The notes under the pieces were generated by a model. It was not told where the DNA came from, made no database searches, and saw only the letters and a list, made by a program, of their open reading frames with translations. A DNA stretch of 64,000 bases from a virus (taxonomy: Duplodnaviria > Heunggongvirae > Uroviricota > Caudoviricetes). Of the stretch, positions 10,020 to 50,638 are shown piece by piece. The position numbers and the translations under genes are program-made. The DNA lies in the IMG/VR virus record IMGVR_UViG_2724678985_000012. One strand, written 5' to 3'. Position 1 is the first letter of the stretch; every line of letters begins with the position of its first letter.

Positions 10020-10183
10020 ATTTTTGTGTCCGTAAACCGCGTTACGCCCGAATTATGGTGGGGCGTGATGGGGAGGCTTCGGCCTGCTGGTTTCACTAAC
10101 GCCAGTCTGTCAACCCTGTCACGTCCTGCCACCTGTTTGACAGCGGGTAGCAGGTTGTTAAACCTGTTAGTGAGGCCGTAACT
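10020..10183 (+). ncRNA. c4-like antisense RNA / icd leader region of immI module 1 (boundaries approximate)
   Basis: structured leader directly upstream of icd-like ORF; internal complementary segments GGTTTCACTAACGCC / CCTGTTAGTGAGGCC. Confidence 0.3.
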
Positions 10184-10408
10184 ATGGTTAATGCCAATCC
10201 TTGCTCACGTCCTGAATTCATCTGGCGTTTCCACTCCCTGCAAAAACACTGCGATCACTTCGCAATTGCCGCAACCGAAAAAGAAGCCCGTTCTCTGATC
10301 CCTGATCAGCATGGTGTTCTTACTGGTCGTTTCTCTACTTCCCCACAACCAAACACTAATCCCTGGTATCGCAATATTACCAATCCCGGCATTGCGGAGG
10401 CACACTGA
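10184..10408 (+). CDS. icd: Icd-like small protein (immI module 1)
   Basis: 74 aa ORF whose stop overlaps ant start; c4-icd-ant arrangement; paralog at 49482. Confidence 0.5.
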   Translation: MVNANPCSRPEFIWRFHSLQKHCDHFAIAATEKEARSLIPDQHGVLTGRFSTSPQPNTNPWYRNITNPGIAEAH

Positions 10409-11115
10409 TGGATATCTGCATTCTTGAAAAGCCATCAATGACCAGCATTGAGATCGCGGAGCTGGTGGGAAAACGTCATGACAATGTGAAGCGTACCATT
10501 GAAACATTAGCCGAATCCGGCGTTATTGTTCGTCCTCAAATTGAGGATGAACCAAAAATAGATGTAATGGGGCGTTCTCGATTAATTCAGGTGTTCCGAT
10601 TTAGCGACGAGCAAGGCAAACGAGACAGTATCATTGTCGTTGCGCAGCTCTCTCCGGAATTCACCGCCCGGCTGGTGGACCGCTGGCGCGAACTGGAAGA
10701 ACAAGTACGCCAGCCGTTGACCGAAATAGAGATGATCGCCGCAATGGCTGCAAATGCAGTTCAGCAGCAAAAGCGGCTTCATGCTGTTGAGTCAAAGGTT
10801 AGCCAGGTCGCTGAAACCGTCGAGCAAATCAAGAAGGGCAATATGCCAGATGGTTACATTGGCTACCGCCAGCTGGCGGCGAAATGCGGCCTGACTGAAG
10901 CCAAATGTCGCAACCTTGTCAACGCTTACCGGATTCCCACCGATACACATGAGTTTTTAACTCCAGAGGGGGTATTGTCGCGTCGTTCCATCGTGGCCTT
11001 ATCTCCCTTCATGAATGCTTTTAACCGGATGATGTCGGAGGCTGAACACCGAGGAAAACGCTGGTATCACCCCAAAATGGGGCAATTCCAGGTGATCGGT
11101 TGGGGAGGTGAGTGA
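10408..11115 (+). CDS. ant: antirepressor Ant (Rha-type N-domain), copy 1
   Basis: 235 aa; conserved N- and C-terminal blocks shared with paralog at 49697. Confidence 0.7.
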   Translation: MDICILEKPSMTSIEIAELVGKRHDNVKRTIETLAESGVIVRPQIEDEPKIDVMGRSRLIQVFRFSDEQGKRDSIIVVAQLSPEFTARLVDRWRELEEQVRQPLTEIEMIAAMAANAVQQQKRLHAVESKVSQVAETVEQIKKGNMPDGYIGYRQLAAKCGLTEAKCRNLVNAYRIPTDTHEFLTPEGVLSRRSIVALSPFMNAFNRMMSEAEHRGKRWYHPKMGQFQVIGWGGE

Positions 11116-11312
11116 TGGACATCATGCAGGCGGTAAAAAAAATCAGGGAAGGACAGGCTGAAGTGTGCCGCCGTAAAGCATGGAGTGTTGGTGTATGGGC
11201 CTGGCCTGATAATTACTCTACTACCGGATGGTTTTGTATTAATGGACTCCAGATCCGGGAAGTTGATTTATCGACGGCTGATATAGTCGGTAATGATTGG
11301 ATCGTGACTTGA
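11112..11312 (+). CDS. small protein with DUF2829-like signature, homologous to C-terminus of Ant copy 2
   Basis: 66 aa; VCRRKAW...NDWIVT aligns with ant2 C-terminal ATVCRRSSW...TDWIVS; ATGA overlap with ant. Confidence 0.45.
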   Translation: MMDIMQAVKKIREGQAEVCRRKAWSVGVWAWPDNYSTTGWFCINGLQIREVDLSTADIVGNDWIVT

Positions 11313-11320
11313 AGCGTGAT

Positions 11321-11346
11321 GCCCCGGCCTGGCCGGGGCTTTTTTC
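11321..11346 (+). terminator. rho-independent terminator after immI module 1
   Basis: gccccggcc-t-ggccggggc hairpin followed by TTTTTT. Confidence 0.7.
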
Positions 11347-23249: not shown

Positions 23250-23326
23250 GATGGTGTAGCTCAGTAGGATAGAGCAGCAGCCTTCTAAGCTGTCGGTCGG
23301 TGGTTCGAATCCACCCACCATCGCCA
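23250..23326 (+). tRNA. tRNA-Arg (anticodon UCU)
   Basis: 77 nt cloverleaf: acceptor GATGGTG/CACCATC, anticodon loop CTTCTAA, T-loop TTCGAAT, encoded CCA. Confidence 0.85.
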
Positions 23327-23331
23327 ATTTA

Positions 23332-23418
23332 GGGGAGTTAGTCCGTAGGGGTAGCGGGGTAGACTGTAAATCTACTGTCATTGCGACTCGGGTGGTTCGA
23401 CTCCATCACTCCCCACCA
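23332..23418 (+). tRNA. tRNA-Tyr (anticodon GUA), long variable arm
   Basis: 87 nt; anticodon stem-loop GTAGA-CTGTAAA-TCTAC as in E. coli tRNA-Tyr; acceptor GGGGAGT/ACTCCCC; CCA. Confidence 0.75.
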
Positions 23419-23422
23419 AATT

Positions 23423-23498
23423 GCCGGTTTAGCTCAGTTGGTAGAGCGCCTGCCTTGTAAGCAGGATGTCAGCGGTTCGAGTCCGTTAACCGGCACCA
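23423..23498 (+). tRNA. tRNA-Thr (anticodon UGU)
   Basis: 76 nt; acceptor GCCGGTT/AACCGGC; anticodon loop CTTGTAA; CCA. Confidence 0.85.
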
Positions 23499-23704
23499 AC
23501 ACAACAGGTAAGGGCATTCTCCCTTATGGGGCTTGGCTTAAATGCATCGAGTGCTCTTACCGTTGTGATGAAGTGCAGCTCTTTGAAGCAACCAGAAGAT
23601 AAGCATCTGGCTTCACAACATAAACCGCAGGAACGACCAATAAACGGTAGTCCGTATGGAGAACACCCCGTTGAGGAAGAGGCCTGGCCGGAACCGTAAC
23701 CGGC

Positions 23705-23803
23705 ACCACAACGTTGAGAACACTGGCGTAACGGGGTCATATCCCAATCTATGAATAAATGTTGCGTTGCAGCGTGACAACCAGTGTTCTCAACATTGTG
23801 GTG
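23705..23803. repeat. long inverted repeat (20-bp arms) of the tRNA-island leader/trailer repeat family
   Basis: CACCACAACGTTGAGAACACTGG ... CCAGTGTTCTCAACATTGTGGTG; related copies at 23498-23518, 23562-23592, 23881-23902, 24080-24111. Confidence 0.7.
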
Positions 23804-23900
23804 AATGCACAGGCTGATGTGCCGCAACTACAGTAGTGCGCGCTTTGCGGGGCTTGCTACAACCCTGTGTCGGAGTTCAGCACCGACCATCACAATCACT

Positions 23901-23987
23901 GGAGAGTAGGGAGCATGGTGCTCAAGCGGTCTTGAAAACCGTCCCATTGCGCAAGCGATGATGGTTCGATTCCATTACTCTCCGCCA
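23901..23987 (+). tRNA. tRNA-Ser (anticodon UGA), class II with long variable arm
   Basis: 87 nt; acceptor GGAGAGT/ACTCTCC; anticodon stem-loop GCGGT-CTTGAAA-ACCGT; CCA. Confidence 0.7.
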
Positions 23988-24250
23988 GTGCAACGTTAAG
24001 AGTATTTGGCTAATTAAGCGAATGCCGGAAGCAGAACCGGATCACCAAATGCGTACAGGCGTCATCGCCGCCCAGCCAGCCAAGTGCTCTTACCATTGCG
24101 GTGAATGCGGCTAAGCGCACGCGGAACAGTTAAAACAATCCTCCTTAGTGGTTAAGTCAAACATCCCGGCGTTAATTGTTAACTGGTTAACGTCACCTGG
24201 AGGCACCAGGCACCGCAGCTTTTTTATTCGGTAAATAATGGAGTGAGAGG

Positions 24251-25294
24251 ATGCAGAACAATCCGAACAAATGTCGAACGCTATGGGTGCGGTTATATAT
24301 TTATGTCGTCCTCTGTTTGATTGTGTCACTGGTTCTGTATGTTTGGCTTTTGCCAAATATGATCTCATCTGACAGCACAATACTTGTATTGTTGGGAGTC
24401 CTTCTCGCGCTCATTTACCCGGCTTTTGCAGTAGTCTTTTTTCGTGAAAAAACCAGGAAATTGATTAATGAAAAAACGTTGATTAGTGCAGCGATTATTT
24501 TTGGTTCTTTATGTCTGACCGGATGCGATCGGGTAGAGCCAGGTAACGTAGGGATCAAAGTAAATAAGCTGGGGGATGATAAAGGTATCGGTGAAGTAGT
24601 TGGCGTTGGTCGCTACTGGACAGGCTTGAATACTGAAGTTTATATCTTCCCGACCTTTAAGCAAATGAAGACATACGATGAGCCGTTCAGCTTCCAGATG
24701 AGCGACGGAACAACCATTGGTTACCACATCGGCGTAGCCTACAAGGTTGATCCAGCAAAAGTCACAACGGTATTTCAGACCTATCGCAAAGGTGTAGATG
24801 ATATTACTGATACCGATCTACGCCAGAAGGTTGCAGATGCTCTGAACCGGTTAGCCAGCAAAATGACCACCGACAAATTTATCGACGGTGGCAAATCTGA
24901 ATTGCTTGATGCAGCCCTTAAAGACATTCAGGAAGAAATGACGCCCATCGGTATTCAGGTAATGAGCCTCTCATATGTGGGCAAGCCGGAGTACCCGCCA
25001 ACCGTTATCGACAGCATTAATGCCAAAGTCACGGCGAACCAGAAAACTCTGCAACGCGAGCAGGAAGTCAAGCAACGCGAAGCAGAAGCCAACATGCTGC
25101 GCGCAGAAGCTGCTGGACAGGCCGATGCCATTCGCACAAAAGCCCAGGCTGAAGCTGATGCCATTCGTTTACGCGGTGAGGCTCTGCGCCAGAACCCCGG
25201 CGTTATGGAGTTGGAAGCGATCAACAAATGGAACGGAACGCTACCGCAGTATATGACCAGTAATACCGCTGTTCCGTTTGTTCCGGTGAAATAA
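24251..25294 (+). CDS. SPFH (band-7/prohibitin)-domain membrane protein
   Basis: N-terminal TM/lipobox-like LTGC; SPFH-like core then Ala/Glu-rich coiled coil; true start likely downstream (24358 or later). Confidence 0.55.
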   Translation: MQNNPNKCRTLWVRLYIYVVLCLIVSLVLYVWLLPNMISSDSTILVLLGVLLALIYPAFAVVFFREKTRKLINEKTLISAAIIFGSLCLTGCDRVEPGNVGIKVNKLGDDKGIGEVVGVGRYWTGLNTEVYIFPTFKQMKTYDEPFSFQMSDGTTIGYHIGVAYKVDPAKVTTVFQTYRKGVDDITDTDLRQKVADALNRLASKMTTDKFIDGGKSELLDAALKDIQEEMTPIGIQVMSLSYVGKPEYPPTVIDSINAKVTANQKTLQREQEVKQREAEANMLRAEAAGQADAIRTKAQAEADAIRLRGEALRQNPGVMELEAINKWNGTLPQYMTSNTAVPFVPVK

Positions 25295-25448
25295 CCAAAT
25301 AGATAACATGATGGAATTTTGGACGTTTGCCGACAAGAACCCTTGGTGGACATTTTTATTTCTGCTGGTGGTTGCATATGGGGTCGAGCAAGCAGCAAAA
25401 GCCTTACGCGGTCCTGGCAAAAAGCGTAAGCGGAATTAACAGTAATCT

Positions 25449-25524
25449 GGCCCTTTAGCTCAGTGGTTAGAGCTGGCGACTCATAATCGCACGGTCACCG
25501 GTTCAAGTCCGGTAGGGGCCACCA
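25449..25524 (+). tRNA. tRNA-Ile2 (anticodon CAU, ileX-like; Met not excluded)
   Basis: 76 nt; near-identical architecture to E. coli ileX; anticodon loop CTCATAA; CCA. Confidence 0.75.
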
Positions 25525-25978: not shown

Positions 25979-26554
25979 ATGTTAATGGCGAACGATAACG
26001 CATATGCAGAAGAAGATCTCATTTTGAGTGACTTCATAGGGAAGCGGGAACGCTGGACCCAAAAGCGAGAGGAACTTTACGCCTCATTAGTTCGCAAAGG
26101 CGTCAATATCGAAACCGCACAGAGCGGCGATATGACAGTGGTAAGCGTTGGATTGCACGGTGTAAGCGTGTCAGCAATCAATCATGAGCCATACGTTGCG
26201 TTATCCGAGTCAATGGTAAGGTTAGTTAAGTTCCTGAAGTACACAGAAGCGAATAATGTAATCATTGGCAAAAAGAATATCCCTTTTTCCTCGGCTTTTT
26301 ACTGGATGATGAAAGGGCTTGATGCCCGGCGGACATCATGGCCTAAAGGGAGCTATATATCGATGTTCCGTGGCAGCATTGGCAGCAAAGAAAAGCTCTT
26401 CGAATTCTTGCCGGAAGAGGCATTCGATATTGTGGAAGGGTGCGATGTGATGGTGATGCCTCGCCTGGTAATGATGAATGGGGATTTACAGGCGCAGACA
26501 GACTGGTTTGCAACTGGTGTGGATATTATCGCGACTGACTGGGAGGCTTTCTGA
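25979..26554 (+). CDS. two-domain protein with C-terminal DUF2829-like domain
   Basis: 191 aa; C-terminal MKGLDARRTSWPKGSYI ... DIIATDWEAF matches DUF2829 signature. Confidence 0.45.
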   Translation: MLMANDNAYAEEDLILSDFIGKRERWTQKREELYASLVRKGVNIETAQSGDMTVVSVGLHGVSVSAINHEPYVALSESMVRLVKFLKYTEANNVIIGKKNIPFSSAFYWMMKGLDARRTSWPKGSYISMFRGSIGSKEKLFEFLPEEAFDIVEGCDVMVMPRLVMMNGDLQAQTDWFATGVDIIATDWEAF

Positions 26555-26946
26555 TGTACGGGACTACCAAATTAAGCACTCAACAGGCCACCAATATGGA
26601 GTGGTCTATCGCTAACTGTAAGATCGTGTCATGCAATGCCACGCGTACTGATGTGGGCCATAAAAGCACTATAACAGGCTATCTAGTAATGACCACCAGG
26701 GGGATGAGGGTTAGATTTCGCTGGAAAGCAGAGCAAGTAACGCCATTCAGAGAGCCATCAATGCCGCTGCAGGTTGAGCAGGATTATCTATGTTTACCAG
26801 AAATAGATGGAGGAATGCTGGTGGAGTCTGATGGTAGTAAGGCTGATTTTGAAGCCAATTTGAAGCTGGCACAGGCCGTAATCAATAGTTATCGCGGAAA
26901 GTGGATCGCAAAAGTGAAACATGTTGTTCGTTTGTCTCGCTGGTAG
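26554..26946 (+). CDS. hypothetical protein
   Basis: 130 aa; ATG overlaps upstream stop. Confidence 0.35.
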   Translation: MYGTTKLSTQQATNMEWSIANCKIVSCNATRTDVGHKSTITGYLVMTTRGMRVRFRWKAEQVTPFREPSMPLQVEQDYLCLPEIDGGMLVESDGSKADFEANLKLAQAVINSYRGKWIAKVKHVVRLSRW

Positions 26947-26961
26947 CGTTAGGTATTTAAT

Positions 26962-26980
26962 ATTAATTTTCTAATATAAT
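26962..26980 (+). promoter_or_regulatory. C1-operator-like motif site 7 (variant TTTTCTAATATAAT)
   Basis: upstream of Lpa-like gene, as P1 lpa is C1-controlled. Confidence 0.4.
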
Positions 26981-27054
26981 CATCTTTTTACCAGTCTATA
27001 CAGTTTTAACATTCTCATTATCATCCCCTCGGTCATTTCCTGCCCGGGGGATTA

Positions 27055-27447
27055 ATGGAACAAATCAGCAGCGCAGAAATTGCGGATATCATGATCAGGG
27101 CTGACTGCTATCTGACAGTCACTGAAATTACCACTCTCGCCAAAGAAAAATACCCTCATCTCCATGTTTCACGAGTAAGTGTAACTAACATCATTCGTCA
27201 TTTTGTTCGTTCAAGCAGGGCAATCTGTGAGCTGGATGATCGTGTGTATCCACGAAAATACTGGCTACATGGTCTGAACGGATATCAGTTCAAGGTGCGC
27301 GGGCGCACGCCTGAATACGGTAGCTTACTGGTTAAAAACTGTAGCAGGAAATCAGTCGAACAGGCGCGAAAAGAGCAACGAGAGCTGGTGGACATGGCGA
27401 ATAAGCTGTGGAATGCCGCCGTTAAAAAGCGTGGTGTTGCTTTATGA
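27055..27447 (+). CDS. putative late-promoter activator (Lpa-like) by synteny
   Basis: 130 aa, immediately upstream of pacA-like gene; operator-like motif in its promoter region. Confidence 0.3.
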   Translation: MEQISSAEIADIMIRADCYLTVTEITTLAKEKYPHLHVSRVSVTNIIRHFVRSSRAICELDDRVYPRKYWLHGLNGYQFKVRGRTPEYGSLLVKNCSRKSVEQARKEQRELVDMANKLWNAAVKKRGVAL

Positions 27448-28808
27448 GTCTGGTTAATTGGGAGGAGCACCGCGCCCGCTTTATAGCGTTGCGTGAAGAA
27501 AAAGGGATCACTGTAAAGGAATACTGTGAGGAGCATGGCCTTAGCTTCAATACAGCCAGAAAGCATCTCAATATGAAAAAAAATGAGGTGCGGTCGCAGG
27601 TAAAGACAACAAAAAAAAGCACCAAATCACCTGAAAAAAAACGGGCGGGAAGAGCAACAAAAAAGCTGGAAGAGGGTGCAGAAAAAACAAAATTTACAGA
27701 AATTGACAATTCGCAGGGCGCAGGTTCTTTCCGAAGTATGCCGAGAAAGAAAACTTCGGATCATGAAAATAATGCAAATAATAACAATGAGATAAAAGAA
27801 TCTGTCAGGAGATCATTGCGCGAAAAAATGGCGAAAATGATCCCCGAAGAAGATAAAAGCGCCCCAAAAATTGAGGGATCTTCAGCAATGATCCCTGGCG
27901 GTGCTGTGCAACGTGCCACATTGCCCACTACGAATGTGGCTCGCGACATGATGAAGAACGGCGCAGAAGAACACCTGCGGTTAGCAATTCAAATGGCGCA
28001 AGAGCGCGCACTTCAGTATCAAAGCATTGTTGATCAGGAGGCCGAACGTCTACAGGCGGAAATAGACGCCTTGGGCGATAAAGAGCCAGAAGGAATGCAC
28101 CCTGGGCAGCGCCTTCTCGGTCTAATCAGTGACGCGGCCTACTACATGAATGATTTTATCAGTAGGTTGGCAGCTATATATCAGTCCGAACAAAAGCTGC
28201 GACAGGGGGATGAAAAGCTTCGTCAGAGCGCTCGCCAGCAAGCATTCAAAGAGGCTGAGGCCAGAGAAAAACTCGAATTAGCACGCCTACAGGCCGAACA
28301 GCGTGGCAAAGAGATTGAATATCGCATTGGCGCTGACGCACGCGCTGCCAGAGTTATCGCCGCCGCTATACGTATGCGTGAGCGCGAGGAACTGGATGAT
28401 ATCGGTGTTGCTGAATACATCGAGCGCCAGGGGGTCAGCGTCCCGGCTATCCTCGCGGCGCGCGCGGCGAAAGCTATCACTCTTCTCGAACCACCTGTTT
28501 CTGACGTCAATGATGTTGATGATGAACAGCTGGACAAAGAGGCAAGGGAGTTTGCAACGCTTCAGGCTAACCATCCGCAATGGCTGGCAGAGCGCCGGGC
28601 GGATGTGGCAACCATTGTTGAAGAATTGGGGTGCGGAGATTACGACCGCAATGGCGAGCGTAAAGCTGGAGAATTCGAGGCCAACGACGAAGAGCTGGAT
28701 ATTGACCCTTCGGCAACGGCTGAAATTTACGGTGATTATGATGCATCTGATGCAGGGTATGACGCCGGAGATGATGATATCGCGATAGAACCGCCGGAGG
28801 ATGATTAA
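27444..28808 (+). CDS. pacA: terminase small subunit PacA-like
   Basis: 454 aa; N-terminal HTH; acidic C-terminus; translationally coupled to large subunit; GATC cluster inside. Confidence 0.6.
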   Translation: MSLVNWEEHRARFIALREEKGITVKEYCEEHGLSFNTARKHLNMKKNEVRSQVKTTKKSTKSPEKKRAGRATKKLEEGAEKTKFTEIDNSQGAGSFRSMPRKKTSDHENNANNNNEIKESVRRSLREKMAKMIPEEDKSAPKIEGSSAMIPGGAVQRATLPTTNVARDMMKNGAEEHLRLAIQMAQERALQYQSIVDQEAERLQAEIDALGDKEPEGMHPGQRLLGLISDAAYYMNDFISRLAAIYQSEQKLRQGDEKLRQSARQQAFKEAEAREKLELARLQAEQRGKEIEYRIGADARAARVIAAAIRMREREELDDIGVAEYIERQGVSVPAILAARAAKAITLLEPPVSDVNDVDDEQLDKEAREFATLQANHPQWLAERRADVATIVEELGCGDYDRNGERKAGEFEANDEELDIDPSATAEIYGDYDASDAGYDAGDDDIAIEPPEDD

Positions 28809-30316
28809 TGGCTGGCGGGCGCAAGATTAAATGCGTCACCAGCGATCCACGCTGGCGCGATATGGTAATCAAATACCGCTACAACTTTACCCAGGCTGTT
28901 GTCGATATTTTTGGGATGTTCCCCTCCCACCAGCAGCAGCAGATCATTCAGTCAGTGCAGGAAACGGGGAGTAGGACGACCGTCACGTCCGGACACGGAA
29001 CGGGGAAGTCGTCCCTTACCGCGATGTTGCTGTTGATTTTTATGATCCTGTTCCCCGATGCCCGTGTCATCATTGTTGCTAACAAGATAGGCCAGGTAAA
29101 AACAGGCGTATTCAAATACGTTAAACAGTATTGGGCGAATGCAGTTAAGCGTCATGGGTGGTTGCAGACCTATTTTGTCCTCTCTGACACCATGTTTTAT
29201 GAGCGCTCCCGTAAGGGGATTTGGGAAGTTCTCTGCAAAGGTTATCGACTCGGCAACGAAGAAGCGCTGGCGGGGGAACACGCGGCACATTTGCTTCTAA
29301 TTCTGGACGAAGCATCTGGTATATCTGATAAGGCGATCGGCGTAATGACCGGTGCTCTTACTGAAGAAGATAACCGGATGTTGATGCTATCCCAGCCAAC
29401 AAGGCCAAGTGGTTATTTCTACGATTCGCACCATTCTCAAGCAAAAACCCCAGACAACCCGAAAGGGATCTGGACAGCAATTGTTCTTAACTCGGAAGAA
29501 TCACCGTTCGTCACACCACAATTCATCAAGCAGAAGCTTCTGGAATATGGCGGGCGCGATTCTATTGAGTACATGGTCAAGGTGCTTGGTCAGTTCCCAC
29601 GAGAAATTAACGGCTATTTGCTTGGTCGTGATGAATGCGATCGCGCTGCTCGCCGCAAGGTGTTGTTGGAGAAAAACTGGGGATGGGTGGCAACGGCTGA
29701 CGTTGGTAATGGGCGAGATAAGTCGGTCCTCAACATCTGCAAAGTATCTGGTCACAGGGATAAGCGGCGCGTTGTTAACTTTAAGGTAATGGAGATGCCT
29801 GGCACTATGGACCCATTGGCCTTTGCTGACTTCATATATAACGAATGTACGCCGGAAAAATACCCGAATATAACAATCGCGGTTGATGCTGATGGTTTTG
29901 GTTCTGATACGTGTGCGCAGTTGGTGCGTCGTGGTGCGAACCCGGTACGTATTCGGTGGGGAAAACCCATGTTTGCGAACAAAGACAGGGAGCGATTTGT
30001 TAATCAGCGTGCCTACGCAAATATTATGGCGCGAGATGCCATAAAGTCAGGGCGTATGCGGATAGACAGTGACCCTAAAACGGCAGAGCAAGCGTCAAAA
30101 ATCCCCTTTTTACTGAATGAAGAAGGGAAAATGGCGATGATGCGCAAAGAGCACATGCGGCAAAAGCTAAACATCAAATCGCCTGACCGATGGGATACCT
30201 ACTGCTTCACTATGCTGGTGGACTATGTGCCTGCTAATGAAGATATTGGTGCCGAAATGGCAACTTTCCGAGATCAGGTTCTGGCGGATATCGAAATGCC
30301 GGATCTGGATATATAA
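28808..30316 (+). CDS. pacB: terminase large subunit PacB-like
   Basis: 502 aa; Walker A SGHGTGKSS and Walker B LLLILDEASG. Confidence 0.75.
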   Translation: MAGGRKIKCVTSDPRWRDMVIKYRYNFTQAVVDIFGMFPSHQQQQIIQSVQETGSRTTVTSGHGTGKSSLTAMLLLIFMILFPDARVIIVANKIGQVKTGVFKYVKQYWANAVKRHGWLQTYFVLSDTMFYERSRKGIWEVLCKGYRLGNEEALAGEHAAHLLLILDEASGISDKAIGVMTGALTEEDNRMLMLSQPTRPSGYFYDSHHSQAKTPDNPKGIWTAIVLNSEESPFVTPQFIKQKLLEYGGRDSIEYMVKVLGQFPREINGYLLGRDECDRAARRKVLLEKNWGWVATADVGNGRDKSVLNICKVSGHRDKRRVVNFKVMEMPGTMDPLAFADFIYNECTPEKYPNITIAVDADGFGSDTCAQLVRRGANPVRIRWGKPMFANKDRERFVNQRAYANIMARDAIKSGRMRIDSDPKTAEQASKIPFLLNEEGKMAMMRKEHMRQKLNIKSPDRWDTYCFTMLVDYVPANEDIGAEMATFRDQVLADIEMPDLDI

Positions 30317-30317
30317 A

Positions 30318-30336
30318 GCCCCGCGATGCGGGGCCG
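30318..30336. terminator. bidirectional hairpin between convergent pacB and 30344-31381
   Basis: agccccgc-gat-gcggggc; T-rich run on minus side. Confidence 0.5.
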
Positions 30337-30343
30337 GTTGTGA

Positions 30344-31381
30344 TTACCAGAGCTTCGCGGCGTACTGCGTTTGGGGGAATGTGTATCCGTAACGTTCTTC
30401 GATTGCTTTGCCGTATTTTTTACGAGCTTCATTCAGTTTAATGCCGGTCAGGTCGTCTCCAGAGGCCATCATTACGTCTAACAATTCCAGATCCATTTTA
30501 TCCAGCCTTGCCATTGCTTCACGTGATGTACGTATCTTACGTTCAATGATATGGCGAATAGCCGGATCGGCATCCTCCAGCATCTTAGCGGATTTCTGCT
30601 TAAGGCTTTCATTGCGAATATCGATGTTCCTTAAGATGTACGACTTCGCAACGTAGCTTGGCTGGTGTTTTTCCAGGTCACGAACACGATATAAGTTAAA
30701 ATCGCCGAGAAGGCTGCAAGGTACCGATTCGACGCCAGAATAAATTGTAATGCTCCGGCGTTCACCAACATTATTGACAACGGGGATCGTTGTCTTCGGT
30801 AGTCTTGCGAAAACCAATGCGCCATGTGCGCCAACTCTAAAGCGAGAAAGGGCATTGCTGCCTTCGATGTTTGTTGTCAGCACAACATCTGTATATGCCT
30901 CTTTACGCGCCCGGTAGATCTCGCCTTCAGGCTCAGCTTCAAAGAAGCGCTGTTCTTCTTCAAGAGCACCTACGATTTGAGAAAAAACCCTATTTTTCAG
31001 GCTTTTCTTTATGATTTTGTCGTATTTTTTTAGCAATTGTTCACGTGTAAATGTACGTGTTGTTGTAGCGCTTTGCACAACGACATGCGTGCTTTGATTG
31101 GTGTCCTCAATGATGAATGGGATCGGAGAATATACAGACTCAACAATGTTCGACGCTTTGCCGTCGGCATCGCGGCACATGTCAACGAAGGCTTTCCATT
31201 CAGCAAGACATTTTTCAGCTTCTTCTAATATGTTTTGGTCATGCGTTAATGCAACATGGCGGAATTCCTCGCCAGCATAACTGGTATCATGGAAAACAGA
31301 GTTTGCGACCACCAGCTCTTTCCACCGTTCAGCGGTTTGCAGGAACCGTTTGTACTCTTTCTCGATCGACTTCTTACTCAT
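30344..31381 (-). CDS. hypothetical protein in the pac-to-rox interval (candidate immunity repressor by position only)
   Basis: 345 aa; operator-like motif overlaps its promoter/start region. Confidence 0.3.
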   Translation of the reverse strand: MSKKSIEKEYKRFLQTAERWKELVVANSVFHDTSYAGEEFRHVALTHDQNILEEAEKCLAEWKAFVDMCRDADGKASNIVESVYSPIPFIIEDTNQSTHVVVQSATTTRTFTREQLLKKYDKIIKKSLKNRVFSQIVGALEEEQRFFEAEPEGEIYRARKEAYTDVVLTTNIEGSNALSRFRVGAHGALVFARLPKTTIPVVNNVGERRSITIYSGVESVPCSLLGDFNLYRVRDLEKHQPSYVAKSYILRNIDIRNESLKQKSAKMLEDADPAIRHIIERKIRTSREAMARLDKMDLELLDVMMASGDDLTGIKLNEARKKYGKAIEERYGYTFPQTQYAAKLW

Positions 31382-31394
31382 TATTCCTACTCGA

Positions 31395-31413
31395 TTTAGT
31401 TTTCTAACATAAA
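31395..31413 (+). promoter_or_regulatory. C1-operator-like motif site 8
   Basis: GATTTAGTTTTCTAACATAAAAT immediately upstream of 30344-31381 start. Confidence 0.5.
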
Positions 31414-31591
31414 ATTACTATGACAAATTTATGTCGAATAACAGAGTGAGTAAAGGATCGAACTGTGATTTTTTGTCATCAATTTTAGAAAACCAACCGT
31501 AGAAACCACACTTCGCAAATTAAAGACCATGAAGGCAACGTGTTACTGGTCATCATCAATCTATGATGGATTTAAAAAAATCGGCATTTTA

Positions 31592-31623
31592 TAACTTTAA
31601 ATAATTGGCATTATTTAAAGTTA
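31592..31623. other. rox recombination site (target of Dre)
   Basis: TAACTTTAAATAATTGGCATTATTTAAAGTTA, exact reverse complement of the recalled 32-bp rox site; about 150 bp upstream of dre. Confidence 0.85.
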
Positions 31624-31775
31624 AGCTATAATCATGGGTGGATGATCAGTGTTGACATCACTGAAAATACGTGCCTCGAATCAAAGGTTTGAATCTTGAA
31701 AATTAACTTATAGCTACCCTGTCATTTTTATATTTTTCGCGTAGCGTCATCTGTATATAGAGGTTAAATAGTTTC

Positions 31776-32804
31776 ATGAGTGAATTAATTATCTCTGGCA
31801 GCTCCAGTGGTTTTCTGCGCAACATTGGCAAAGAGTACCAGGAGGCCGCAGAAAACTTTATGCGGTTCATGAATGACCAGGGGGCTTACGCGCCTAATAC
31901 TTTGCGCGATCTCCGGTTAGTGTTTCACTCCTGGGCGAGATGGTGTCACGCTCGCCAGCTCGCCTGGTTCCCGATCTCTCCAGAGATGGCCCGCGAGTAT
32001 TTTCTTCAGCTGCATGATGCTGATCTGGCTTCGACCACCATTGATAAGCACTACGCCATGCTGAACATGCTGCTTTCGCATTGTGGCCTTCCGCCACTTT
32101 CGGATGATAAAAGTGTTTCTCTGGCTATGCGGCGCATCCGGCGTGAAGCGGCAACGGAAAAAGGCGAACGAACAGGCCAGGCTATACCGCTGCGGTGGGA
32201 CGATCTGAAACTGCTCGACGTCCTGTTGTCCAGGTCAGAACGGCTGGTGGACCTGCGCAACCGGGCTTTTCTCTTTGTTGCATACAATACGCTGATGCGC
32301 ATGTCTGAAATCTCGCGTATTCGTGTAGGAGATCTGGACCAAACAGGTGACACTGTCACGCTACATATTTCACACACGAAGACAATAACGACCGCCGCCG
32401 GGCTTGATAAGGTGCTTTCCCGTCGCACTACTGCTGTGCTGAATGACTGGCTGGATGTTTCCGGGCTTCGTGAACATCCTGACGCGGTGCTGTTCCCGCC
32501 GATACACCGTAGCAATAAGGCCAGGATTACGACAACGCCCCTTACTGCACCTGCAATGGAGAAAATATTTAGTGACGCCTGGGTGTTGCTGAATAAAAGA
32601 GATGCCACTCCAAACAAGGGGAGATACCGGACGTGGACCGGGCATAGTGCTCGTGTCGGGGCTGCTATCGATATGGCAGAAAAGCAGGTGTCTATGGTGG
32701 AGATCATGCAGGAAGGAACCTGGAAGAAACCGGAAACACTTATGCGGTATCTGCGCCGTGGCGGCGTGTCTGTGGGGGCTAATAGCCGCCTGATGGATTC
32801 ATAA
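31776..32804 (+). CDS. dre: Dre tyrosine recombinase (Cre homolog of D6-type phages)
   Basis: 342 aa; aligns along full length with Cre (LNML, SLAMRRIR, RIRVGD, GHSARVGAA, IMQ-G-W motifs); adjacent rox site. Confidence 0.9.
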   Translation: MSELIISGSSSGFLRNIGKEYQEAAENFMRFMNDQGAYAPNTLRDLRLVFHSWARWCHARQLAWFPISPEMAREYFLQLHDADLASTTIDKHYAMLNMLLSHCGLPPLSDDKSVSLAMRRIRREAATEKGERTGQAIPLRWDDLKLLDVLLSRSERLVDLRNRAFLFVAYNTLMRMSEISRIRVGDLDQTGDTVTLHISHTKTITTAAGLDKVLSRRTTAVLNDWLDVSGLREHPDAVLFPPIHRSNKARITTTPLTAPAMEKIFSDAWVLLNKRDATPNKGRYRTWTGHSARVGAAIDMAEKQVSMVEIMQEGTWKKPETLMRYLRRGGVSVGANSRLMDS

Positions 32805-32822
32805 ATTAAATTTCTAACACAT
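32805..32822 (+). promoter_or_regulatory. C1-operator-like motif site 9
   Basis: AATTAAATTTCTAACACATC right after dre stop. Confidence 0.45.
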
Positions 32823-32877
32823 CTTTTTAGATTGTTATCTTTGCTGTAAAGTACCCTCGCCTATTTCGGAGGGTGCT

Positions 32878-33222
32878 TTGCAGAGTCAAATCACGGAATC
32901 AAGACGCTTTAAGGTGGATGGTTACACCGTAACCTTCGCCGCTGGTGTTAAGAACAGTCATGCTGTCGTTGTGTTCGGCATCATGACCGGGCTTGAGGCC
33001 GTCCCTGTGTTTACCCTCGAAAAAAACTGGCGAAATCTGGAGGAAGCAGAAAGCTACGTCCGGAAAGTAACCATCATTGCCGCCGAAAAACTCCTGGCCC
33101 ACTATCAGGAAAATTATCGCACTATGGTCGAGAAGATTAATCTCGCTTTCACTCGCCCCACTACCGGCTTTATTGCACCGGATACTAATGCAGGTCGCTA
33201 TCCTGCAAGGGGGCGTCGGTGA
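32878..33222 (+). CDS. hypothetical protein
   Basis: 114 aa ORF, non-ATG start likely. Confidence 0.3.
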   Translation: MQSQITESRRFKVDGYTVTFAAGVKNSHAVVVFGIMTGLEAVPVFTLEKNWRNLEEAESYVRKVTIIAAEKLLAHYQENYRTMVEKINLAFTRPTTGFIAPDTNAGRYPARGRR

Positions 33223-33695
33223 AAACTTATTACACATCTCTGAATTGTTACCCGTCTTCCTATCCAGAATTATCCGGGAAGCTGTTAGCTCTATTAGCTA
33301 AAGCACCTACGGAATGGTTTAAGCCAGTCGTTATCAATCCACACTTCCTGGATTACGGATCTGTTCGCACTCGTAACGAACTCAAAAACCTACTGGCGCA
33401 TGGATTCATTCGACACCGTGCCGGGAAAGGCTATCAGTTAGCGATTGCGCCAGAAGAGGCCGTGCGGCTATTCGCATATCGTGACAGCCAGACAAAAGCT
33501 CGGGTAATAGCTCAAATACTTCATAACGGCAGCACCTATGCCCGCCAGTTTGGCGGCGACACGTCGCAGTTCTTGCGGGCGGTGCGATCGCTGGAGGAGC
33601 AAGGAGTTATTGAAAGTTCCTGTCTTCCTGTTCCTACCGTTCCACATATCAAACGTCGGGTTTACACCTTCACGCAGAGAGCTAAAAAACAATGA
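33219..33695 (+). CDS. hypothetical protein with possible winged-helix segment
   Basis: 158 aa; GTG start; overlaps neighbours by 4 nt. Confidence 0.35.
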   Translation: MKTYYTSLNCYPSSYPELSGKLLALLAKAPTEWFKPVVINPHFLDYGSVRTRNELKNLLAHGFIRHRAGKGYQLAIAPEEAVRLFAYRDSQTKARVIAQILHNGSTYARQFGGDTSQFLRAVRSLEEQGVIESSCLPVPTVPHIKRRVYTFTQRAKKQ

Positions 33696-34186
33696 TTTAC
33701 GTAAAAGTGAAACGCCTACATCCGGCAGCAAAACTTCCAGCTTATGCCACCTCCGGATCGGCGGCGATGGATTTTGAGGCTGTTGAAATAAAACCATGCG
33801 TCGATAGCAATGGTGCAATTTCCTCAAGCTGGTGGGTGTATACCGGACTGGCTATGGAGATCCCGCCCGGCTGGTGTCTGAAACTCTATCCGCGATCCGG
33901 ATTGGGCTGCAAAAAACATACTCGCCTGGCTAACTGCGTAGGAATTATCGACTCCGATTATCGCGGCGAAATCATGGCAAAACTGATTACTGATCCCGGC
34001 GGGGAAGGCGTTTGTCTCAAGCCTGGAATGGCTGTCATGCAAGGAATTTTTGAACGAGTTGAACAAGTCTCACTAGTCGAGGTTGAGGAACTCAACGAAA
34101 CGGAACGTGGTGCTGGTGGCTTTGGTAGCACATCGGAAGGCCACTTTGAAATTAAGCGTTCACCGCTTCAGTACGAAAAGTTATAA
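33692..34186 (+). CDS. dut: dUTP diphosphatase (dUTPase)
   Basis: motifs SGSAAMDF, PRSG, GIIDSDYRGE, RGAGGFGSTS. Confidence 0.85.
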   Translation: MIYVKVKRLHPAAKLPAYATSGSAAMDFEAVEIKPCVDSNGAISSSWWVYTGLAMEIPPGWCLKLYPRSGLGCKKHTRLANCVGIIDSDYRGEIMAKLITDPGGEGVCLKPGMAVMQGIFERVEQVSLVEVEELNETERGAGGFGSTSEGHFEIKRSPLQYEKL

Positions 34187-34200
34187 GCAGAGAAAAGACT

Positions 34201-34878
34201 ATGAATAACATGGCAACGAAAGAGCTTTTTAAGTTCCTTCCCAAATACAAAGCTCACAAAAACGTTAGTGCATCGAAAATCAAAAATGTTGTTATTTTCG
34301 GAGTAACTGATGCCCCACTTTGGGGCTGCATCGAACTCGTTGAACCAAAAGGGGCAACAGTTTGTGTTGACGCAATGTTTTTACAAAAACACCGACCAAA
34401 AACTGGCGGGTATCTGATCGTTTATGAAAACGGTTATCTGTTCTATGCCCCGGAGAAACCATTTGAGGAACGCTATGGCCTGGTTAACGACGCCTCCAAA
34501 AATGGAACCACGGTCATCATTACGGATGACAACGGCGTGATGATTAATCTTACCGGGAGCGTAACTATTTCTGCTGGTGGCATCACCACCCAGCAAGAAG
34601 AAATCGACCTTGAAGCAGCCGACTTTTCTGACGCGCTGATGTGGCTGAAGGATGGCAAGAAAGTTGCTCGACGCGGGTGGAACGGCGAAAACCAATTCTG
34701 CTGGCTGGTTCCTGAAGGACAGTACCCGGCACGAATGGAAGCCATTAAGGGATATTTCCCCGGCGACCTCGTTCCGTATGGTGCTTATTTCGCCTTAAAA
34801 AATGCACAAGGTGTAGTTGTTCCGTGGGTTCCTTCTGTAGGCGACTTACTGGCATGTGACTGGTTTGTAGTGGAGTGA
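34201..34878 (+). CDS. two-domain protein with canonical C-terminal DUF2829 (Tad2-like) domain
   Basis: 225 aa; C-terminal ALMWLKDGKKVARRGWNG ... VVPWVPSVGDLLACDWFVVE. Confidence 0.55.
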   Translation: MNNMATKELFKFLPKYKAHKNVSASKIKNVVIFGVTDAPLWGCIELVEPKGATVCVDAMFLQKHRPKTGGYLIVYENGYLFYAPEKPFEERYGLVNDASKNGTTVIITDDNGVMINLTGSVTISAGGITTQQEEIDLEAADFSDALMWLKDGKKVARRGWNGENQFCWLVPEGQYPARMEAIKGYFPGDLVPYGAYFALKNAQGVVVPWVPSVGDLLACDWFVVE

Positions 34879-34884
34879 TTTGAC

Positions 34885-35661
34885 ATGGAAAGCACCAAAA
34901 CAATTCAATACCGCTTGCGTAATGGCCTGCTGGTGGCTGTTAACGCCGACATGTCACTGCCGTTTGACACGATTGAACGCACTATCATGACGTATCTCGG
35001 CTTTAATGAAGAGCTGAATGAAGAGCATGGCGTAGCTATATGGAGTGATGCAGACAGCGGCGTTCGTCGTTACATCACCGCCAGGGGCAAAGACTACTCT
35101 CTGGAAGAACTGTTTACCCTTGCGCAGTCTTTCGAATGTGTAGCATTAGACCTGTTTAATGATCCTGCTATAGCGCAACGACTTATACGCGAGCTTGGGC
35201 TATCCGTTACACCAATTATCTTTAAAAATGGCAGCCTGACTGGCACATGGCGCGTAGAACGCATCTCAAACTACCTTCCATATAACCGACAGTTAAATGG
35301 AGTAATCTCCGGCGTTAATCAGCCCGTAGCGTGTGAAAATGTAAACCTGGTTGTCGCTGTTTTGGCAACCGCATGTCGTGTTATCGGTTTGGCTAAACAG
35401 GCATTTATTCATTTCCCAAATGGTGCAGAAGGTAGCGCAGAGATTATCGCGTGTGATTTCGAATTTACCTGGATGCTACGCGAATATCTGGACCAAACAG
35501 TATTCCGTGCCGAAGAACTGGATATGTATATCACGTCAACGATTCCAGACGATGTGCGAGCTGAAGCAATCGCTATAGCCAGGGCGAAATGCCGTGCGGC
35601 GATTGCAGAACGGGCCAAAGAAGAACAGTCCAATGATACAGCGGCAGAAGAGGTGAAATAA
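34885..35661 (+). CDS. hypothetical protein
   Basis: 258 aa ORF followed by strong terminator. Confidence 0.4.
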   Translation: MESTKTIQYRLRNGLLVAVNADMSLPFDTIERTIMTYLGFNEELNEEHGVAIWSDADSGVRRYITARGKDYSLEELFTLAQSFECVALDLFNDPAIAQRLIRELGLSVTPIIFKNGSLTGTWRVERISNYLPYNRQLNGVISGVNQPVACENVNLVVAVLATACRVIGLAKQAFIHFPNGAEGSAEIIACDFEFTWMLREYLDQTVFRAEELDMYITSTIPDDVRAEAIAIARAKCRAAIAERAKEEQSNDTAAEEVK

Positions 35662-35663
35662 CA

Positions 35664-35695
35664 AAAAGCCCGCTTGGTATGGCGGGCTTCTTTTC
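35664..35695. terminator. rho-independent terminator (between convergent units)
   Basis: agcccgc-ttggtatg-gcgggct followed by TCTTTTC. Confidence 0.7.
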
Positions 35696-35912
35696 AAATA
35701 CTGGAAGCACTTTGCCTGCTACCAAGCATTCTCTGTTTAAGCACAACCATTTCCTGACGGCATAACACAGCAATAGCGGTCCTGGCGCCAATTTGCTTAC
35801 CAATCAGGTATTGCTTTACCTCGCGGCGACTCACGCCATCAAGAAGCATCTTTAACGCTTCACGGGACAATTTGTTGTATCTACGTGCCATTAATCTACT
35901 CCGCGGAACCAT
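35694..35912 (-). CDS. small hypothetical ORF downstream of doc (HTH-like), questionable
   Basis: 72 aa; overlaps doc 3' end; post-doc position. Confidence 0.2.
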
Positions 35913-36276
35913 ACAATCTACGTAACGTGTCGGCGACAGAAGATACAGATATCTCTCCGGTCGCAGCCCCTACGGTAAGGTCTGCCAGTTCAGGTGAATC
36001 AAATACCTGCACCCCGTTACGGCGTAGAAATAGCAGCGCACTGTTTAGCGCGGTACGCTTATTGGCATCATTGAATATATGCCCTCTCGCCGTAGCCACC
36101 AGGTAGGTGGCGGAGACTTCGAAAAGGTCGGTGATCTCTTCGTAGGCAACTCTGGCCTGAACTCTCCCGATAATGGCCTCTGCCCTACCCGGATCTGACA
36201 TGCCCGGCAGTCCGCCGTAGCGGCTTATATTCGCATCATGAAGCGCAATAAGTTCTTCCGGTGATATATGCCTCAT
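35896..36276 (-). CDS. doc: Doc toxin (Fic-family kinase) of Phd-Doc addiction module
   Basis: 126 aa; matches recalled P1 Doc sequence ([22 protein letters not shown]...); TAATG overlap with phd. Confidence 0.9.
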
Positions 36277-49481: not shown

Positions 49482-49697
49482 ATGGCTACTATCCCTACCC
49501 CAACTCATTCTGAATTTATCTGGCGTTTCTATTCCTGCCAAAAACACCTGTATATCTGCGTCATGGCTGCTACCGAAGCAGAGGCGCGCTCATACCTTCC
49601 CGAAGAACCCTGCATTTTTGCTGCTCGCTTCACTCTTGATGCGATGGAGATCCTCAATTACTGGAATCTGCCGATGAACTGCGTGGAGGTGCACTGA
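49482..49697 (+). CDS. icd: Icd-like small protein (immI module 2)
   Basis: 71 aa; paralog of 10184-10408 (shared EFIWRF...QKH...AATE.EARS); stop overlaps ant. Confidence 0.5.
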   Translation: MATIPTPTHSEFIWRFYSCQKHLYICVMAATEAEARSYLPEEPCIFAARFTLDAMEILNYWNLPMNCVEVH

Positions 49698-50638
49698 TGA
49701 ATCTGTCCATCTCTCAAAAAGCGACAATGACCAGTATTGAGATCGCGGAACTGGTGGGAAGTCGTCACTCTGATGTTAAACGCAGCATCGAAAGACTTGT
49801 TGCTAAAGGAGTTATCCAACATACGCCATTGGCTACAGTTGAGAATAATCAATCACTTAGCCCTAATAAATACACAAAAGCCTATTTCTTCGAAGGCGAA
49901 CAAGGCAAGCGCGATAGTATTGTCGTCGTCGCGCAGCTCTCTCCCGAATTCACCGCCCGGCTGGTGGACCGCTGGCGCGAATTGGAGAATGCCCGGGTAC
50001 AGTTAAAATCAAAAGCCGAAATTCTGGCTGAAATGGCGCAAATGCATCTTGAACATGAACGCCGGATCAACGCCGTAAATGCCCAGGTAGCCGAGGTATC
50101 GGCACAAGTGTCCAGGGTCGCTGAAACCGTTGAGCAAATCAAGAAAGGCAATATGCCGGAAGGCTACATTGGCTACCGCCAGCTGGCGGCAAAATGCGGC
50201 CTGACCGAAGCCAAATGTCGCAACCTGGTCAACGCTTACCGGATTCCCACCGATACGCATGAGTTTTTAACTCCCGATGGTTTGCTTGCGCGACGCTCCA
50301 TTGTGGCCCTGGCCCCCTTCCGGAAAGCCTTTAAGCAGGTGATGTCGGAGGCAGAACCACGCAATAAACGCTGGTATCATCCAAAGATGGGGATGTTTCA
50401 GGCAATCAACCATCCTGTGCCTGAAAGCCCAAAGGATAATCTGTCACTACATACCGCCAGAGAGAAGATCAGGACTGGATACGCAACAGTGTGTCGTCGT
50501 TCTTCCTGGCCTGAAGGTATATGGGTGTGGCCCGAAGGTGGATCACGAAAGCACTGGCGCACTATCCGGGATGGGAAAATCCATGCTATTGATTTAGCTC
50601 CAGAGGATGTTGTTGCTACGGACTGGATTGTTAGTTAA
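49697..50638 (+). CDS. ant: antirepressor Ant, copy 2, with fused C-terminal DUF2829-like domain
   Basis: 313 aa; conserved blocks with copy 1; C-terminal ...TDWIVS homologous to separate ORF 11112-11312. Confidence 0.7.
   Translation: MNLSISQKATMTSIEIAELVGSRHSDVKRSIERLVAKGVIQHTPLATVENNQSLSPNKYTKAYFFEGEQGKRDSIVVVAQLSPEFTARLVDRWRELENARVQLKSKAEILAEMAQMHLEHERRINAVNAQVAEVSAQVSRVAETVEQIKKGNMPEGYIGYRQLAAKCGLTEAKCRNLVNAYRIPTDTHEFLTPDGLLARRSIVALAPFRKAFKQVMSEAEPRNKRWYHPKMGMFQAINHPVPESPKDNLSLHTAREKIRTGYATVCRRSSWPEGIWVWPEGGSRKHWRTIRDGKIHAIDLAPEDVVATDWIVS

Follow-up and report, generated by a model that had tools for sequence, protein, structure and literature searches.

The closest described relatives of the domains considered here are the Tad2 sponges. 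In the Tad2 of phage SPO1, 1''-3' glycocyclic ADP-ribose (gcADPR) is held by W25, N26, W73 and D79, and T78, S76 and other residues contribute. The W21A/N22A and S90A/T92A/D93A mutants of HgmTad2 lose binding. MoTad2 binds histidine-ADP-ribose (His-ADPR), and its second pocket binds cyclic UMP and cyclic CMP (cUMP/cCMP). The insertion between strands beta2 and beta3 of Tad2 contains helix a2 and builds the V-shaped dimer interface; in the case of HgmTad2, it also forms the cyclic-dinucleotide pocket. The published family includes short variants and variants with a 'WP' motif (Hadary et al. 2025, 10.1101/2025.08.24.671296), and fusions of Tad2 with Acb4 and with Sequestin (PF21825) have been described (10.1101/2025.07.12.664507). 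We analysed a 64,000-nucleotide stretch of the virus record IMGVR_UViG_2724678985_000012 (the window), which, judged by identity and gene content, is a D6-like, P1-family phage-plasmid. A preliminary description of this DNA had claimed four DUF2829 domains, here called copies 1 to 4, and had proposed that they are four signal-nucleotide sponges. Open reading frames (ORFs) or segments for all four were indeed found. As the joint best explanation, to which we give a probability of about 0.6, the window encodes one probable anti-Thoeris sponge (copy 1), one divergent paralogue (copy 2) and two remote mini-relatives (copies 3 and 4).

The Tad2 domain and the Dec-like module of the 225-residue protein

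Copy 1 is the C-terminal part of a two-part protein:

34201..34878, + strand: copy 1, 225-residue Dec-like/Tad2 fusion (ORF; PF11195 80 bits; AlphaFold2 pLDDT 82)
34201..34605, + strand: Dec-like module of copy 1, an oligonucleotide/oligosaccharide-binding (OB) fold (residues ~15-95) and a beta-rich stalk (~105-131)
34621..34875, + strand: Tad2 domain of copy 1, residues 141-225, with a complete pocket for ADP-ribose (ADPR) signals

The Pfam family PF11195 is named Tad2-like (formerly DUF2829); its profile has 73 positions and its gathering cut-off is 25 bits. Copy 1 scores 80 bits (E 1.8e-22), above the cut-off, with residues 141-224 aligned to profile positions 2-73. A phmmer search against the PDB matched its last 89 residues to MoTad2 (9EIB/8V3E) with an E-value of 6e-21, and HgmTad2/AcrIIA7 (8KBI) and SPO1 Tad2 (8SME) were also matched in the PDB sequence search. 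The AlphaFold2 model of copy 1, built from 68 sequences, has a mean predicted local distance difference test score (pLDDT) of 82, and of 87-93 in the Tad2 domain. In a Foldseek comparison, this model superposes on the solved Tad2 fold, which consists of an N-terminal helix and a five-stranded antiparallel sheet (E 1.5e-9 against 9EIB; template-modelling scores, normalised to the target, of 0.75-0.87 for the Tad2 structures and 0.86 for 8V3E). By sequence and by model, the C-terminus of 34201-34878 is confirmed as a clear member of the Tad2 family. The equation of DUF2829 with the Tad2 fold in the preliminary description was correct, and the comparison with Tad2 structures that it had proposed gave a match for copy 1.

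The residues that hold the ligand in SPO1 Tad2 are all kept in copy 1, where W160, N161, W209, S212 and D215 correspond to W25, N26, W73, S76 and D79. Across the copy 1 homologues, W160, W209, S212, D215, R157, D220 and W221 are invariant (68/68), and N161 is present in 57/68. Among the four domains of the window, copy 1 is the only one that has all the pocket residues for ADPR signals (W, N, W, S, D). The 'canonical signature' that had been noted thus holds fully in copy 1 and not in the other three.

The closest protein tested by Hadary et al. is Tad2_68, with 68% identity to the copy 1 domain over 82 residues in a BLASTP-type comparison. Tad2_68, a metagenomic Tad2 from IMG/VR, scored as blocking type II Thoeris in each of the three columns of the assay (y/y/y), and it blocked type I on individual re-test (Hadary Table S2, 10.1101/2025.08.24.671296). 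The exact D6 sequence was not found in the supplementary tables of that work. The copy 1 domain is also 45% identical to MoTad2. It does not carry the long insertion that in HgmTad2 takes up the cyclic dinucleotides cGG and cGAMP, so CBASS signals of this kind are not expected as its ligands. By sequence and by analogy with the tested homologues, copy 1 is probably a signal-nucleotide sponge and is a strong candidate for such a role. We suppose that its C-terminal 85 residues would form a tetramer with ligand pockets between the protomers, like the solved Tad2 proteins. This tetramer would sequester ADP-ribose-derived signals made by TIR proteins, namely the His-ADPR of type II Thoeris and probably the 3' cyclic ADP-ribose (3'cADPR) of type I. 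Sequestration of the signal would keep the ThsA effector off.

The N-terminal half of the protein has a different origin. A profile of 18 such halves matched the Dec protein of phage L (6E3C) with an E-value of 7.2e-7, positions 21-125 aligning with 24-124 of Dec, and the match extends through the OB fold into the first part of the stalk. The model of copy 1 was matched to 6e3c by Foldseek (E 3.4e-3, probability 1.00). By sequence and model, the N-terminus of copy 1 is homologous to the OB/stalk module of phage L Dec. Of the two partner domains that had been listed as unknown, this one is therefore accounted for, and the N-terminus of copy 2 stays without a match.

This homology raises the question of whether the 225-residue protein decorates the capsid, the OB domain binding the D6 head and the stalk presenting a Tad2-like tip for a ligand or glycan. 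The shared region includes the start of the beta-helix stalk, some homologues have stalks resembling coiled coils or contain a tail-fibre repeat (P0008, PF03406), and one homologue is annotated as 'capsid decoration protein'. However, a gene for a Dec-type decoration protein is expected among head genes, and the copy 1 gene lies far from them, in a dre-dut-isaA string of accessory genes behind a sigma-70-like promoter. The same holds for the Dec-like genes, with or without Tad2, of two unrelated lytic phages, Klebsiella phage SopranoGao (3986-4582) and Pseudomonas phage Dolphis (3495-3989), which sit among small early-type genes outside the capsid modules. The label 'capsid decoration protein' of Dolphis gp96 may come from similarity alone. 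In addition, phage of the D6 type is viable without much of the OB domain, and the residues of the Tad2 pocket are invariant, as expected for nucleotide binding. We consider a decoration function very unlikely. The Dec-like half of copy 1 would rather be an oligomerising or accessory module of the candidate sponge.

The copy 1 gene is the fifth in a tight string of genes on the same strand: dre, two ORFs, dut, Dec/Tad2 and an isaA-like gene. The following features frame it:

31605..31632, + strand: sigma-70-like promoter, TTGGCA-16-TATAAT, 11/12 match to the consensus, upstream of dre (rox/dre region)
31776-32804: Dre recombinase
35663..35692, no strand assigned: terminator-like hairpin after the isaA-like gene, at the end of the gene string (consensus match)

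The site at 31605-31632 is the sole promoter-like site in the interval 31300-36000, in which shuffled sequence gives about six, and the hairpin after isaA is the only convincing terminator-like one in the region scanned. Because the string is tight and follows a near-consensus sigma-70 promoter, we infer that copy 1 would be transcribed from this candidate promoter, and hence would probably be produced by the plasmid-prophage and during early infection rather than as a late virion protein.

More than 100 plasmids carry the copy 1 locus (at least 80% of a 3.2-kb query). The gene was named 'DUF2829 domain-containing protein' in every annotated record among the 12 matches listed, and RefSeq gives a 225-residue homologue the same name. 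The D6 reference (NC_050154 2594-3034, orf114) has a 146-residue version, in which 79 residues of the Dec part are gone and Tad2 is kept. Other D6-like elements encode a 241-residue dUTPase-Tad2 fusion (P0058), and some close homologues of copy 1 add a C-terminal PF21825 Sequestin domain. Because Dec can be lost, because Tad2 is also fused to dUTPase and to Sequestin, and because the modules recombine independently, the Tad2 module appears from the sequences to be the constant, selected part of the protein.

This independence was seen among the 68 homologues, in which the OB, stalk and Tad2 modules form mosaics: identity in these three modules is 59/100/100% for one homologue (P0011) and 99/100/82% for another (P0005). 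Since the module identities are uncoupled, the modules recombine independently of each other, and the comparison suggests frequent recombination between alleles of this gene. This locus is especially prone to deletion and fusion, as the 225-, 146- and 241-residue versions show. In the P1-like phage RCS47 (FO818745), a homologue of window positions 34201-34660 lies at 15474-15950; it is annotated as 'part 1', covers only residues 1-152 and adjoins an inverted repeat and isaA ('IS1-associated'). Judging by this arrangement, the Dec/Tad2 gene of RCS47 was apparently interrupted by an inserted IS1. The N-terminal part of copy 1 gave no match in P1 itself.

The divergent paralogue in the 191-residue protein

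Copy 2 also forms the C-terminus of a larger protein:

25979..26554, + strand: copy 2, 191-residue protein with an N-terminal domain without a family match and a 'WP'-variant Tad2-like domain; AAGGAG upstream
26285..26548, + strand: Tad2-like domain of copy 2, residues 103-190

The AAGGAG sequence is a strong ribosome-binding site. Copy 2 scores 39.1 bits with PF11195 (E 1.1e-9), above the cut-off, over residues 103-190 and profile positions 3-72 of 73. A profile of the 191-residue family matches SptTad2 (E 0.014), and hhalign aligned the C-terminal domain with the Tad2 alignment at 95.8% probability (E 6.5e-9). Its sequence confirms that copy 2 is a true but divergent paralogue in the Tad2 family. 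The insertion between beta2 and beta3 is retained in copies 1 and 2. Copy 2 keeps W25, W73 and D79 in SPO1 numbering, S76 is replaced by T, and N26 is replaced by P in all seven homologues (SWPKG). The asparagine that contacts the phosphate has thus become a proline, and if copy 2 is a sponge, its ligand would probably be different. The nearest tested relatives, Tad2_69 and Tad2_72, carry the WP motif as well; Tad2_69 had no effect on any of the seven systems (0/7), and Tad2_72 blocked type I Thoeris (Hadary et al., 10.1101/2025.08.24.671296).

The N-terminal part of about 100 residues gave no match in Pfam, among PHROG functions, in the PDB or with the Dec-like module. A search of the PDB with the single 191-residue sequence returned nothing useful, and matches to malate dehydrogenase at E >0.6 were rejected. 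Among 50,697 phage records, only D6 carries the 191-residue gene. Another D6-like element has it at 56% identity and in the same order: the 191-residue gene, a 130-residue gene, lpa, pacA, pacB, c1 and the recombinase. In the window, the 130-residue ORF (26554-26946) overlaps the stop codon of the 191-residue gene in an ATGA-type arrangement. This ORF is a conserved neighbour in D6-like elements (L005-L007) and has no family match.

The 56% homologue of copy 2 (P0131) is named by NCBI 'MW1434 family type I TA system toxin'. We rejected this label, as it comes from a computational list for S. aureus (PMC6266405) and is not reproduced by the current NCBIfam. It is probably a misleading name which spreads through annotations. 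The name, together with the fact that AcrIIA7 is a DUF2829 protein, could be taken to mean that DUF2829 proteins act as type I toxins or anti-CRISPR proteins and not as sponges. We regard this as extremely improbable. The list behind the toxin name is purely bioinformatic, AcrIIA7/HgmTad2 failed to inhibit Cas9 on re-test, and the proteins of the window are soluble domains of 190-225 residues rather than small membrane peptides.

Antirepressor-linked mini-domains

Copies 3 and 4 are both linked to antirepressor (Ant) genes:

10408..11115, + strand: Ant copy 1, Rha/Roi-type, 235 residues (Pfam Phage_pRha; D6 annotation)
11112..11312, + strand: copy 3, a 66-residue mini Tad2-like ORF; likely start ATG at 11115, with a TGATG overlap with the Ant copy 1 stop, behind GGAGGTGA
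11321..11340, + strand: GC-rich hairpin (GCCCCGGCC...GGCCGGGGC) directly 3' of the 66-residue ORF, read from the sequence
49697..50638, + strand: Ant copy 2, 313 residues, with a mini-domain fused in frame
50441..50638, + strand: copy 4, the mini Tad2-like C-terminus of Ant copy 2, residues 249-313

Both Ant proteins are of the Rha/Roi type, with the N-terminal Phage_pRha winged helix and the conserved central region, as confirmed by PF09669 (32.7 and 37.5 bits) and phrog_63 (E 1.5e-62); they are 62% identical over 238 residues. Both follow an icd-like gene, as in the immI of P1. Ant copy 1 and copy 3 make up a split, translationally coupled unit, and Ant copy 2 and copy 4 make up a fused one. 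Copies 3 and 4 are clear paralogues (BLASTP: 42% identity, E 1e-18) and both match phrog_7385 (E 1.8e-49 for copy 3 and 5e-15 for copy 4). The Ant homologues encoded by phiP27, by Stx phages and by Klebsiella prophages have their C-terminus near residue 238. Among the 50,697 phage records searched with tblastn, the mini-domain, fused or coupled, occurs in the D6 lineage only. Since the mini-domains are paralogous, the Ant proteins are paralogous, other Ant proteins stop near residue 238 and the domain is confined to D6, the mini-domain is, by sequence, a lineage-specific add-on of one duplicated Ant unit and not the result of two independent attachments. The statement that each of the four domains is attached to a different partner was therefore overstated.

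Two icd-ant (immI-like) modules are thus present in one genome, at 10183-11312 and 49482-50638 (D6 orf19-17 and orf83-82). Ant copy 2 shares only 86.6% identity with its counterpart in the D6 reference, against 98-99% for most of the region, and this difference suggests an allelic replacement of the Ant copy 2 module.

The relation of these mini-domains to Tad2 is not visible at the level of single Pfam matches. With PF11195, copy 3 scores 15.1 bits (E 0.034) and copy 4 scores 9.9 bits (E 1.5), both below the cut-off. Of the four DUF2829 domains that had been claimed, the Pfam search therefore upholds copies 1 and 2, and copies 3 and 4 can be placed near the family only remotely, by hhalign and through one relative that passes the cut-off. 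A profile of the five-member mini family, compared by hhalign with 27-28 Tad2 domains, aligned end to end at 95.6-97.1% probability (E 1e-8 to 7e-11), and all controls (20 column shuffles, the reversed query and three unrelated domains) remained at or below 1.8%. With the two window sequences alone, the probability was 70.6%. For four of the five members, PF11195 is the best or near-best Pfam family, and one member, the distant relative P0138, passes the PF11195 cut-off at 37.4 bits. The predicted secondary structure, a1-b1-b2-b3-b4-(short helix)-b5, has the order of Tad2. Judged by these profile comparisons, copies 3 and 4 are remotely related to Tad2.

Another explanation is that the mini-domains are an unrelated small beta-domain, for example an SH3-like one, and that the resemblance of the motif (RR..W ... 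D..A.DW) is convergent or due to chance. It would fit the subthreshold Pfam scores, the E >1 obtained with a hidden Markov model (HMM) of close Tad2 relatives and the lower hhalign probability with two sequences. It would also fit the AlphaFold2 model of the 66-residue ORF, which is too weak to establish a Tad2 fold and has non-significant best matches to SH3-like barrels in a Foldseek-type comparison. A PDB sequence search with the same ORF gave no match. The end-to-end alignment with its low controls, the Pfam ranking within the mini family and the order of the predicted secondary structure argue against chance, and we consider an unrelated fold unlikely.

The mini family is itself tiny by sequence, since an exhaustive HMMER search with its profile gave eight matches among 1.84 billion representatives, one of them spurious (a 1,816-residue repeat protein). 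Two relatives (P0135, P0136) are encoded by small genes that stand alone in other elements; these elements measure about 90 kb and carry ParM-type partition genes.

Accepting a remote relation to Tad2, the mini-domains differ from the sponges in the pocket. The beta2-beta3 insertion is deleted entirely, as seen in both hhalign and MAFFT alignments. In copy 3, N26 is replaced by S and W73 by V; in copy 4, N26 is replaced by P, W73 by I and S76 by A. With the insertion and two key pocket residues gone, it is unlikely that copies 3 and 4 act as canonical gcADPR sponges. They might conceivably serve Ant as an accessory module for oligomerisation or for a small ligand.

With this, the proposal of four sponges can be weighed. 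It would make the four domains a toolkit of working sponges with diversified specificities against CBASS, Thoeris and Pycsar. All four are at least remotely Tad2-like, and Tad2 homologues vary greatly in specificity. Of the 84 sponges tested, 19 hit none of the seven systems (0/7) and may bind other signals. The free-standing mini relatives are small accessory genes in their elements. Set against this, the full gcADPR pocket is present only in copy 1: copy 2 has lost N26 to proline, and copies 3 and 4 have lost N26, W73 and the insertion. Tad2_80, a mini protein of 73 residues with WP and without W73, and Tad2_69 are among the closest tested homologues of the degenerate copies and inhibited nothing (0/7 systems). 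Copy 4 is joined covalently to an antirepressor, an architecture unlike that of a sponge. It turned out that the four-sponge claim is unsupported, and we judge a toolkit of four working sponges quite unlikely.

Several points weigh against our own reading of one probable sponge with degenerate relatives. Variants without WN can be active: Tad2_72 (WP) blocks type I, and Tad2_79 (WS, with W73) blocks types I and IV Thoeris. Fusions of Tad2 with a Dec-like domain are known, and Hadary et al. deliberately excluded from their data set the Tad2 proteins with a PF21825 or 6E3C domain (10.1101/2025.08.24.671296), so the Dec-like/Tad2 architecture of copy 1 lies outside the published functional screen. 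Should the stalk of the Dec-like module form trimers, as that of phage L Dec does, it may clash with a closed Tad2 tetramer. Finally, the promoter and terminator calls around copy 1 are consensus matches only and no proof of function.

A broader idea is that the Tad2 fold has been put to new use in the D6 lineage, as a small-ligand module that can be attached to different proteins. Ant would then sense a host nucleotide signal and pass it to the lysis-lysogeny decision, and the OB domain and the N-terminus of the 191-residue protein would be new sponge or scaffold modules. We regard this as a long shot. If the Ant mini-domain does sense an immune signal, an alarm would be tied to the lysis-lysogeny switch. 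If the Dec-like OB domain and the copy 2 N-terminus are sponge or scaffold modules, they could be discovered by 'guilt by fusion', as Sequestin was.

Distribution, surroundings and comparison with known systems

A fifth Tad2 copy was not found in the window: a narrow Tad2 HMM run over 1,178 six-frame ORFs matched copies 1 and 2 only, copies 3 and 4 giving E >1. NCBIfam and PADLOC gave no match for the four proteins or their neighbours. With tblastn, 280 phage records held 295 Tad2 places; this count is insensitive to divergent copies and does not establish rarity, and multi-copy carriage of Tad2 seems uncommon at the sensitivity of BLAST. The preliminary description had called carriage of four copies unusual, and this count is in line with it. 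The presence of the family as such is not new: a preprint (10.1101/2025.09.12.675607) lists 'Tad2 AcrIIA7 (anti-Thoeris)' for 93% of the D6-like elements and for 56% of the P1-like ones, and the RefSeq label already contains DUF2829. Copy 1 as a D6-type Tad2 is therefore a modest extension of the reported presence in D6-like elements. New, by sequence, are a single element with four family-related domains of graded degeneracy and a Tad2-like sub-type tied to an antirepressor, split or fused.

Over positions 25979-34878, the window shares 98.8-99.5% of its sequence with Escherichia phage D6 (AY753669, MF356679/NC_050154) and is 99.2-99.5% identical to many E. coli and Salmonella plasmids of about 92 kb. 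The window also holds the D6 landmarks: the Dre recombinase, pacA/pacB, the c1 repressor, lpa, dut, phd/doc and the two icd-ant modules. The assignment of the window to D6-like, P1-family phage-plasmids follows from this identity and these landmarks.

Just upstream of the 191-residue gene, at 23250-25524, there are five tRNA genes (Arg-TCT, Tyr-GTA, Thr-TGT, Ser-TGA and Met-CAT). Immediately downstream of the 66-residue ORF, a CHAP-domain protein is encoded at 11345-11830 on the - strand (baseplate hub/tail lysozyme in the D6 annotation), and a 2,278-residue DarB-like helicase/methylase ORF lies at 11982-18818 on the + strand. Therefore, the Ant-plus-mini unit adjoins the anti-restriction (dar) region.

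These findings overturn nothing in current understanding. Pathogenic E. coli, Shigella and Salmonella commonly carry D6- and P1-like phage-plasmids, and an anti-Thoeris sponge made from the plasmid, if real, would help to explain how these elements become established in hosts defended by TIR proteins. The Dec-like/Tad2 architecture is widespread but absent from the one functional screen of large scale, which makes the copy 1 gene a test case that is convenient and can be cultivated. The degenerate paralogues, especially the mini-domain linked to the antirepressor, mark the edge of the Tad2 family and could reveal uses beyond sequestration.

Compared with known systems, the Ant proteins are about 60% identical over residues 1-238 to the Rha/Roi antirepressors of phiP27, Stx phages and HK97 (Roi; phrog_63). 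Unlike the Ant units of the window, these antirepressors end at about residue 238 without a mini-domain. The closest tested proteins to copies 2-4 are Tad2_80 (73 residues), Tad2_69 (80 residues) and Tad2_72 (108 residues), which share the RR..WP motif, and Tad2_80 has lost W73 and the insertion as copies 3 and 4 have. Identity is only 26-31% over the longer BLASTP alignments, and the best match of the 66-residue ORF spans 13 residues. None of the three is fused to an antirepressor, unlike copy 4. In the Tad2-Acb4 and Tad2-Sequestin fusions Tad2 is likewise joined to another module, but the partners in the window (the Dec-like OB domain, the 100-residue domain of copy 2 and Ant) are not known sponges.

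Phage L Dec (6E3C) is homologous to the N-terminal 125 residues of copy 1; it differs in that copy 1 lies in an accessory, early-type context and has a Tad2 C-terminus instead of a full beta-helix spike. SPO1 Tad2 (gp34.65; 8SME/8SMF/8SMG) and HgmTad2/AcrIIA7 (8KBI-8KBM) share their fold and their gcADPR pocket residues with copy 1, but identity is only 36%, the long HgmTad2 insertion is absent from copy 1, and copies 2-4 change pocket residues. The nearest likeness is to Tad2_68 and MoTad2 (9EIB, 8V3E), with which the copy 1 domain shares its length, the short insertion and the pocket residues at 68% and 45% identity, respectively. These two proteins stand alone at 87-88 residues, whereas copy 1 adds a Dec-like N-terminal module of 135 residues to the same domain.

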